A DNA stretch of 693 bases from Escherichia coli (lineage in GTDB: Bacteria; Pseudomonadota; Gammaproteobacteria; Enterobacterales; Enterobacteriaceae), in assembly GCF_003334405.1 (NCBI RefSeq), contig NZ_QOWM01000056.1. The stretch is one strand, 5' to 3'. This document shows, in pieces, positions 1-693 of this stretch (positions within the stretch are counted from its first letter, which is position 1; every line of letters begins with the position of its first letter). The notes beneath the pieces are model-generated. The model ran no database searches. It had not been told where the DNA came from and saw nothing but the letters and a program-made list of their open reading frames with translations. The translations under genes and the position numbers were made by a program.

Positions 1-673
1 GGGTCTATACCCTGCAACTTAACGCCCAGTTAAGACTCGGTTTCCCTTCGGCTCCCCTATTCGGTTAACCTTGCTACAGAATATAAGTCGCTGACCCATT
101 ATACAAAAGGTACGCAGTCACACGCCTAAGCGTGCTCCCACTGCTTGTACGTACACGGTTTCAGGTTCTTTTTCACTCCCCTCGCCGGGGTTCTTTTCGC
201 CTTTCCCTCACGGTACTGGTTCACTATCGGTCAGTCAGGAGTATTTAGCCTTGGAGGATGGTCCCCCCATATTCAGACAGGATACCACGTGTCCCGCCCT
301 ACTCATCGAGCTCACAGCATGTGCATTTTTGTGTACGGGGCTGTCACCCTGTATCGCGCGCCTTTCCAGACGCTTCCACTAACACACACACTGATTCAGG
401 CTCTGGGCTGCTCCCCGTTCGCTCGCCGCTACTGGGGGAATCTCGGTTGATTTCTTTTCCTCGGGGTACTTAGATGTTTCAGTTCCCCCGGTTCGCCTCA
501 TTAACCTATGGATTCAGTTAATGATAGTGTGTCGAAACACACTGGGTTTCCCCATTCGGAAATCGCCGGTTATAACGGTTCATATCACCTTACCGACGCT
601 TATCGCAGATTAGCACGTCCTTCATCGCCTCTGACTGCCAGGGCATCCACCGTGTACGCTTAGTCGCTTAACC
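1..673 (-). rRNA. rrl: 23S (LSU) ribosomal RNA, 5' portion (domain I and start of domain II); partial, gene continues past window position 1
   Basis: Reverse complement of 637-673 reads GGTTAAGCGACTAAGCGTACACGGTGGATGCCCTGGC, the canonical mature 5' end of enterobacterial 23S rRNA. Further universally conserved 23S blocks follow in the correct order on the minus strand: CTGAAACATCTAAGTA (rc of 467-482), CCCCAGTAGCGGCGAGCGAACGGGGAGCAGCCC (rc of ~406-438), ACCGATAGTGAACCAGTACCGTGAGGGAAAGGCGAAAAGAACCCCGGCGAGGGGAGTGAAA (rc of ~173-231), and GGGTATAGACCC (rc of 1-12). Colinear over the whole window with no indels that I can detect by eye. Confidence 0.97.
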
Positions 674-693
674 TCACAACCCGAAGATGTTTC
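674..693 (-). other. pre-23S 5' leader / 16S-23S spacer segment directly upstream of the mature 23S 5' end (one strand of the presumed RNase III processing stem)
   Basis: Reverse complement of 674-693 is GAAACATCTTCGGGTTGTGA, immediately abutting the mature 5' end GGTTAAGCG. In enterobacterial rrn operons this flanking sequence pairs with sequence 3' of 23S to form the RNase III processing stem. The pairing partner lies outside the window, so the boundary and role are inferred from established knowledge rather than seen. Confidence 0.6.

Follow-up and report, generated by a model that had tools for sequence, protein, structure and literature searches.

A 693-nt stretch matching the 5′ end of the Escherichia coli 23S rRNA gene: copies, operon of origin, and mis-joins in public records

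Results

Identity and layout of the window

The window (the whole 693-nt stretch of DNA analyzed here) is almost certainly the 5′ end of an E. coli rrl (23S rRNA) gene of the K-12-type allele, lying on the opposite strand and accompanied by the last 20 nt of the 16S–23S spacer. It is the reverse complement of E. coli 23S nucleotides 1–673 plus 20 nt of precursor leader upstream, and 23S positions are converted by taking the window coordinate as 674 minus the 23S position. The features are as follows.

1–673, minus strand: 23S rRNA nucleotides 1–673 (RF02541; 100% identity to RefSeq-annotated E. coli 23S genes)
674–693, minus strand: last 20 nt of the 16S–23S spacer, i.e., the 23S 5′ leader from −20 to −1 (RefSeq 23S start)
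123–133, minus strand: hairpin tip at 23S 541–551 (alignment of E. coli and Salmonella copies)
317–410, minus strand: sites variable among the K-12 operons (comparison with the seven MG1655 copies)
145–450, plus strand: longest open frame, 101 codons, antisense to the rRNA (mechanical ORF listing), most probably a chance ORF rather than a gene

Window positions 1–673 (minus strand) match the Rfam family LSU_rRNA_bacteria (RF02541) at 614.4 bits (E = 7.5e-201, model positions 1–716), against a gathering threshold of 50 bits. The match is flagged as cut at its 3′ side and takes in no more than the opening quarter of the model's 2,925 positions; the window falls short of a full-length LSU rRNA of ~2.9 kb, its sequence stopping at 23S position 673. 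This incompleteness is a limit of the window, and the gene itself, which runs on past window position 1, is not truncated. Nucleotides 1–673 correspond to domain I and the first part of domain II in the large-subunit rRNA.

The first-pass annotation had placed the stretch wholly inside 23S, which is contradicted at one end: in the RefSeq record of MG1655 the annotated 23S begins at base 21 of the window match, the Rfam alignment starts at window position 673, and by both the 20 nt at 674–693 are spacer or leader. That account also gave no strand for the gene, which is minus in the window.

No other credible RNA family was found in the window by a permissive Rfam scan, and a match to the archaeal snoRNA sR10 (16 bits, E = 0.13) was dismissed as chance. 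All 12 ORFs of at least 20 aa in the mechanical list lie inside the rRNA. The longest, the 101-codon antisense frame, was rejected as a gene, being without a Pfam match (best DUF2079, E = 0.11) and wholly within a structural RNA gene.

Copies in E. coli and the operon of origin

The window was matched in all 5,426 complete E. coli genomes, at 37,974 places and with a median of 7 per genome, and all 693 nt are present at 100% identity in many E. coli chromosomes, K-12 MG1655 included. The best copy per record reached at least 99% identity in 3,206 records and 95–99% in 2,227. Evenly spaced sampling of the ranking located exact copies down to rank ~1,670–1,810 of 5,435 records, or about one-third. 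In every genome locus fetched, the window-identical sequence stood in the order 16S, spacer tRNA(s), 23S, 5S. Shigella was absent from the collections searched.

E. coli carries seven rrn operons (PMC2672173). The earlier description of the stretch as multi-copy, on the ground of these seven operons, agrees with the median of seven places and with the seven copies in MG1655. With about seven nearly identical copies per genome, no single chromosomal site can therefore be assigned to the window.

Some complete E. coli genomes have eight window places (e.g., NZ_CP025892.1), and one has 20, the maximum; such surplus places may reflect additional rrn copies or matches broken into fragments. As a separate observation, NZ_AP027888.1 (2,750 bp, E. 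coli strain 2018-05-5CC) has an annotated 23S at 316–600 with only 79.7% identity to the window across 285 nt; this is a foreign or contaminant rRNA fragment inside an E. coli "complete genome."

All seven MG1655 rrn operons were fetched, and each was compared base by base with the window, with the following result.

rrnB, rrnD, rrnE, rrnG: 0 differences over 693 nt, leader included
rrnA: 1 difference, at 23S 316 (window 358), where rrlA has T
rrnH: 2 differences, at 23S 264 (window 410), where rrlH has G, and 542 (window 132), where rrlH has T
rrnC: 3 differences, at 23S 285 (window 389), where rrlC has A, and 356/357 (window 318/317), where rrlC has A/T

At each of the six sites that vary among the K-12 operons, the window has the majority allele. 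A unique operon assignment is impossible because four of the seven K-12 operons match the window exactly, and the previous statement that its operon of origin cannot be named holds base for base with respect to rrnB, rrnD, rrnE, and rrnG of MG1655. The window is still partly informative, with rrnA, rrnH, and rrnC excluded if the strain is K-12-like. The four identical copies are first split at position −21, where rrnD and rrnG have T, and rrnB and rrnE have A; their other differences, at 23S 1723–1735 (rrnD) and 2794–2802 (rrnE), also fall outside the window. The unique genes beside these operons in K-12 are murI/murB (rrnB), yrdA/yhdZ (rrnD), purH/yjaA (rrnE), and clpB/kgtP (rrnG). The rrn copies of a genome are homogenized by gene conversion.

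Sequence variation and the helix-25 hairpin

Variation within E. coli clusters at the 541–551 tip, at the paired positions 137/142, and at the single sites 264, 285, 316, and 356/357. The tip at 541–551, in a hairpin that we take to be helix 25 in the standard numbering, is the most variable spot. The window has the K-12-type tip allele, CAC-GCUUAGGC-GUG, and its position 132 (23S 542), at which rrnH differs, sits in this tip. In the alignment, three other tip alleles occur in E. coli AR_0013, O55:H7 DEC5D, and B19, and another in Salmonella.

Window positions 532 and 537 (23S 142 and 137) flank a UUCG loop and read U...A in the window and in K-12, and A...U in AR_0013, B19, and Salmonella. 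From the aligned sequences, this looks like a compensatory base-pair swap segregating within E. coli.

In some Salmonella records, the match to the window is split into two pieces that together span ~100 nt more than the query. To judge from the matched coordinates, the excess would be an insertion somewhere within that span. Helix 25 is the site of intervening sequences in Salmonella 23S rRNA, and the ~100-nt excess would fit such a sequence.

Leader and processing stem

The leader from −20 to −1 shows no variation among the 31 copies compared; position −21 is A, T, or C, and the spacers upstream are of very different types. When the leader and 23S nucleotides 1–12 were cofolded with the K-12 rrnB sequence at the 3′ end of 23S plus its trailer, a partner strand that lies outside the window, the energy was −40.4 kcal/mol, against −18.2 ± 2.8 with shuffled partners (0 of 500 shuffles as good). 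The cofold pairs the 5′ end and leader with the 3′ end and trailer, as helix 1 plus the processing stem. This predicted pairing is consistent with window 674–693 forming the 5′ side of the 23S processing stem, the leader/trailer duplex that RNase III is known to cleave in freeing pre-23S.

The 3′ end of StyR-44 (RF01830) lies 8 nt before 23S in four rrn loci, and by this position in the full loci window 681–693 is the last 13 nt of StyR-44. The window itself gave no match to the 107-position StyR-44 model at E up to 1.

Chimeric MAG and metagenome contigs

One genome from each of 100,044 species was scanned with 100 nt around the helix-25 tip as the pattern. Only two exact matches were obtained, both in MAGs, and both contigs carry the whole 693-nt window at 100% identity.

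USBZ01000017.1 ("uncultured Desulfovibrio sp. UMGS1580"): rRNA at 11755–14492, with a flank of 11.7 kb (54–59% G+C over the first 11 kb)
JAHAYL010000010.1 ("Oxalobacter sp. MBin.057"): rRNA at 9676–13266, with a flank of 9.6 kb

The flanks of the two contigs (50–59% G+C) have no E. coli genome match by megablast over their 11.7 and 9.6 kb. On USBZ01000017.1, the 5′ 800 nt of 16S are only 74–91% identical to K-12; after 16S position ~800, the remaining 16S, tRNA-Ile/Ala, the spacer, and 23S 1–746 are 99–100% E. coli, up to the contig end. JAHAYL010000010.1 is 100% E. coli almost throughout from the 16S 3′ end via tRNA-Glu to 23S position ~2400 (one 200-nt block at 96%), beyond which identity is 95%, 84%, and 80% and the 5S is unlike that of E. 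coli.

The same one-genome-per-species scan returned no Escherichia-labelled record with the K-12-type 100-mer; apparently, all copies in the genome chosen to represent E. coli have helix-25 alleles other than this one.

Metagenome contigs were scanned with a pattern made of the leader and 23S nucleotides 1–80, and 15 gut contigs were found, seven of which (L018, L020, L024, L027, L028, L029, and L031) show an identity switch. For L018, L020, L024, L027, L028, and L031 (human gut), which come from independent assemblies, the 5′ part of 16S is 73–91% identical to E. coli and the rest ~96–100%, with the join points usually in conserved rRNA regions; L028 has a second switch, at 23S ~2000. The remaining contig, L029 (OOCM01000485.1), has the same length (39,250 bp), identity profile, and blast alignment to K-12 rrnA as USBZ01000017.1 and is apparently the same contig deposited a second time. 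The two MAG contigs and these seven metagenome contigs are chimeric across the rRNA.

A further contig, L021 (OGIK01003027.1, 8.9 kb), is E. coli-like in the leader and 23S for 113 nt only (1100–1212), after which the match ends; it may be another mis-join, at 23S position ~93.

Plasmid and phage records

OR844775.1 ("Escherichia phage ECO111 5-P," 5,386 bp) is an UNVERIFIED_ORG SPAdes node containing 16S, tRNA, StyR-44, and most of 23S, the last cut at the record end. It belongs with a set of short, unannotated phage-collection records that are 95–99.9% identical to the window (OR845267.1, OR850889.1, PV358070.1, PQ800148.1, and OR850364.1). One Staphylococcus phage-labelled record (1,627 bp) matches the enterobacterial 23S of the window at 97.3%.

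CP088748.1 ("plasmid pB16EC0942-4," 8,897 bp, circular) is non-mobilizable, carries a single hypothetical CDS besides a complete rrn operon, and looks like a repeat-induced assembly product. Similar small, non-mobilizable records come from the same series of blood isolates (CP088766.1, CP088871.1, CP088634.1, CP088358.1, CP088420.1, and CP088631.1). At the other extreme of size, NZ_OL790696.1 (4.80 Mb), NZ_CP134663.1 (4.90 Mb), and NZ_CP141089.1 (4.94 Mb) are plasmid-collection records with seven window copies each and appear to be chromosomes filed as plasmids.

Alternative readings of the record

The sequence could be real rRNA while the record that holds it is an assembly artefact, either a collapsed rrn consensus or the E. 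coli part of a misattributed chimeric contig, and we regard this as possible, if doubtful. A collapsed repeat does not conflict with the 23S identification, and rDNA repeats do collapse in short-read draft genomes (bioRxiv 10.1101/2021.01.01.425045). The majority allele at every K-12 variable site is in keeping with a consensus, and the exact window on MAG contigs with flanks unmatched in any E. coli genome, with an abrupt switch in identity that recurs in 7 of the 15 metagenome contigs, is in keeping with a chimera. The right end of the window (693) also speaks for an artefact, being the last base common to all rrn spacers, at the −20/−21 divergence, where a unitig of a de Bruijn graph would stop. 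The left end (23S 673), however, is no branch point: it lies in invariant sequence, the next 6 nt are the same in 26 copies, and the closest positions that vary in K-12 are 542 and 846. Moreover, −20 is not an endpoint in any of the 15 metagenome contigs, and four genuine K-12 copies have the exact sequence, so that a collapse is not needed to produce it. The unitig-like right end may be a coincidence or a hint.

Much less credible is an origin from an extrachromosomal or mobile rrn copy, borne by a plasmid or phage, which we hold to be highly improbable. It could draw on the 12 of the 37,974 places in complete E. coli genomes that fall on plasmid-labelled records, and on eight plasmid records and one "phage" record that match at 99% or better, the top plasmids being large E. 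coli records of 94 kb to 4.8 Mb. Yet the two records inspected, OR844775.1 and CP088748.1, are unconvincing as replicons, several of the "plasmid" matches are megabase-sized with four or seven copies and appear to be mislabelled chromosomes, and the IMG/VR viral contigs contain no exact match to the 100-nt stretch at helix 25, a negative result for a viral origin as well. We give still less credence, indeed next to none, to the idea that some of the recurrent mosaic joins reflect real transfer of E. coli rRNA-operon segments into other gut bacteria and that the window came from such a mosaic. Real transfer is very unlikely because the abrupt switches sit where rRNA is most conserved and come from short-read assemblies of samples that contain E. 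coli. The reading that we prefer remains an ordinary copy of the 5′ end of rrl with its leader.

Discussion

The feature is real, ordinary, and already known, and the window itself has nothing unusual about it. By established knowledge, the gene in the window would be transcribed within the rrn precursor, RNase III would cleave the leader/trailer stem of that precursor, and the remaining 673 nt would fold into domain I and early domain II of the LSU rRNA. As DNA, the window would behave as a repeat at which short-read assemblies break, collapse, or are mis-joined.

As a textbook multi-copy repeat, the window is of importance for quality control only. An oddity that adjoins it in a short-read assembly is more probably a mis-join than biology. 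Such mis-joins are already inside species-representative genome sets and inside phage and plasmid collections, as with the exact E. coli 23S sequence in MAGs labelled Desulfovibrio and Oxalobacter, and the rrn operons deposited as phages or plasmids. The first-pass annotation had warned that a stretch of this kind is prone to collapse or mis-joining, and the two chimeric MAG contigs, the seven chimeric metagenome contigs, and the rrn-operon "phage" and "plasmid" records bear the warning out. Its advice to treat any unusual context beside the window with caution was likewise correct, these public contigs and records being concrete examples.

Compared with known systems, the window agrees with the bacterial LSU rRNA of Rfam (RF02541) in sequence and secondary structure over model positions 1–716. 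StyR-44 (Rfam RF01830) is a 109-nt RNA of Salmonella Typhi and E. coli, from the spacer that precedes 23S, of which the window has a 13-nt fragment only, and which, according to its describers, may merely be a metastable rRNA-processing intermediate (PMC2943607). The 23S genes of Salmonella enterica are ~97% identical over the window and have an identical leader, but they differ from it in the helix-25 tip and by several substitutions, and the window is free of the insertion of some Salmonella records; with Salmonella copies at ~97%, the exact window sequence is therefore of the Escherichia type. Within K-12, rrlA, rrlH, and rrlC have the same leader and share 690–692 of the 693 nt with the window, and rrlB, rrlD, rrlE, and rrlG with their 5′ leaders show no difference from it at all.
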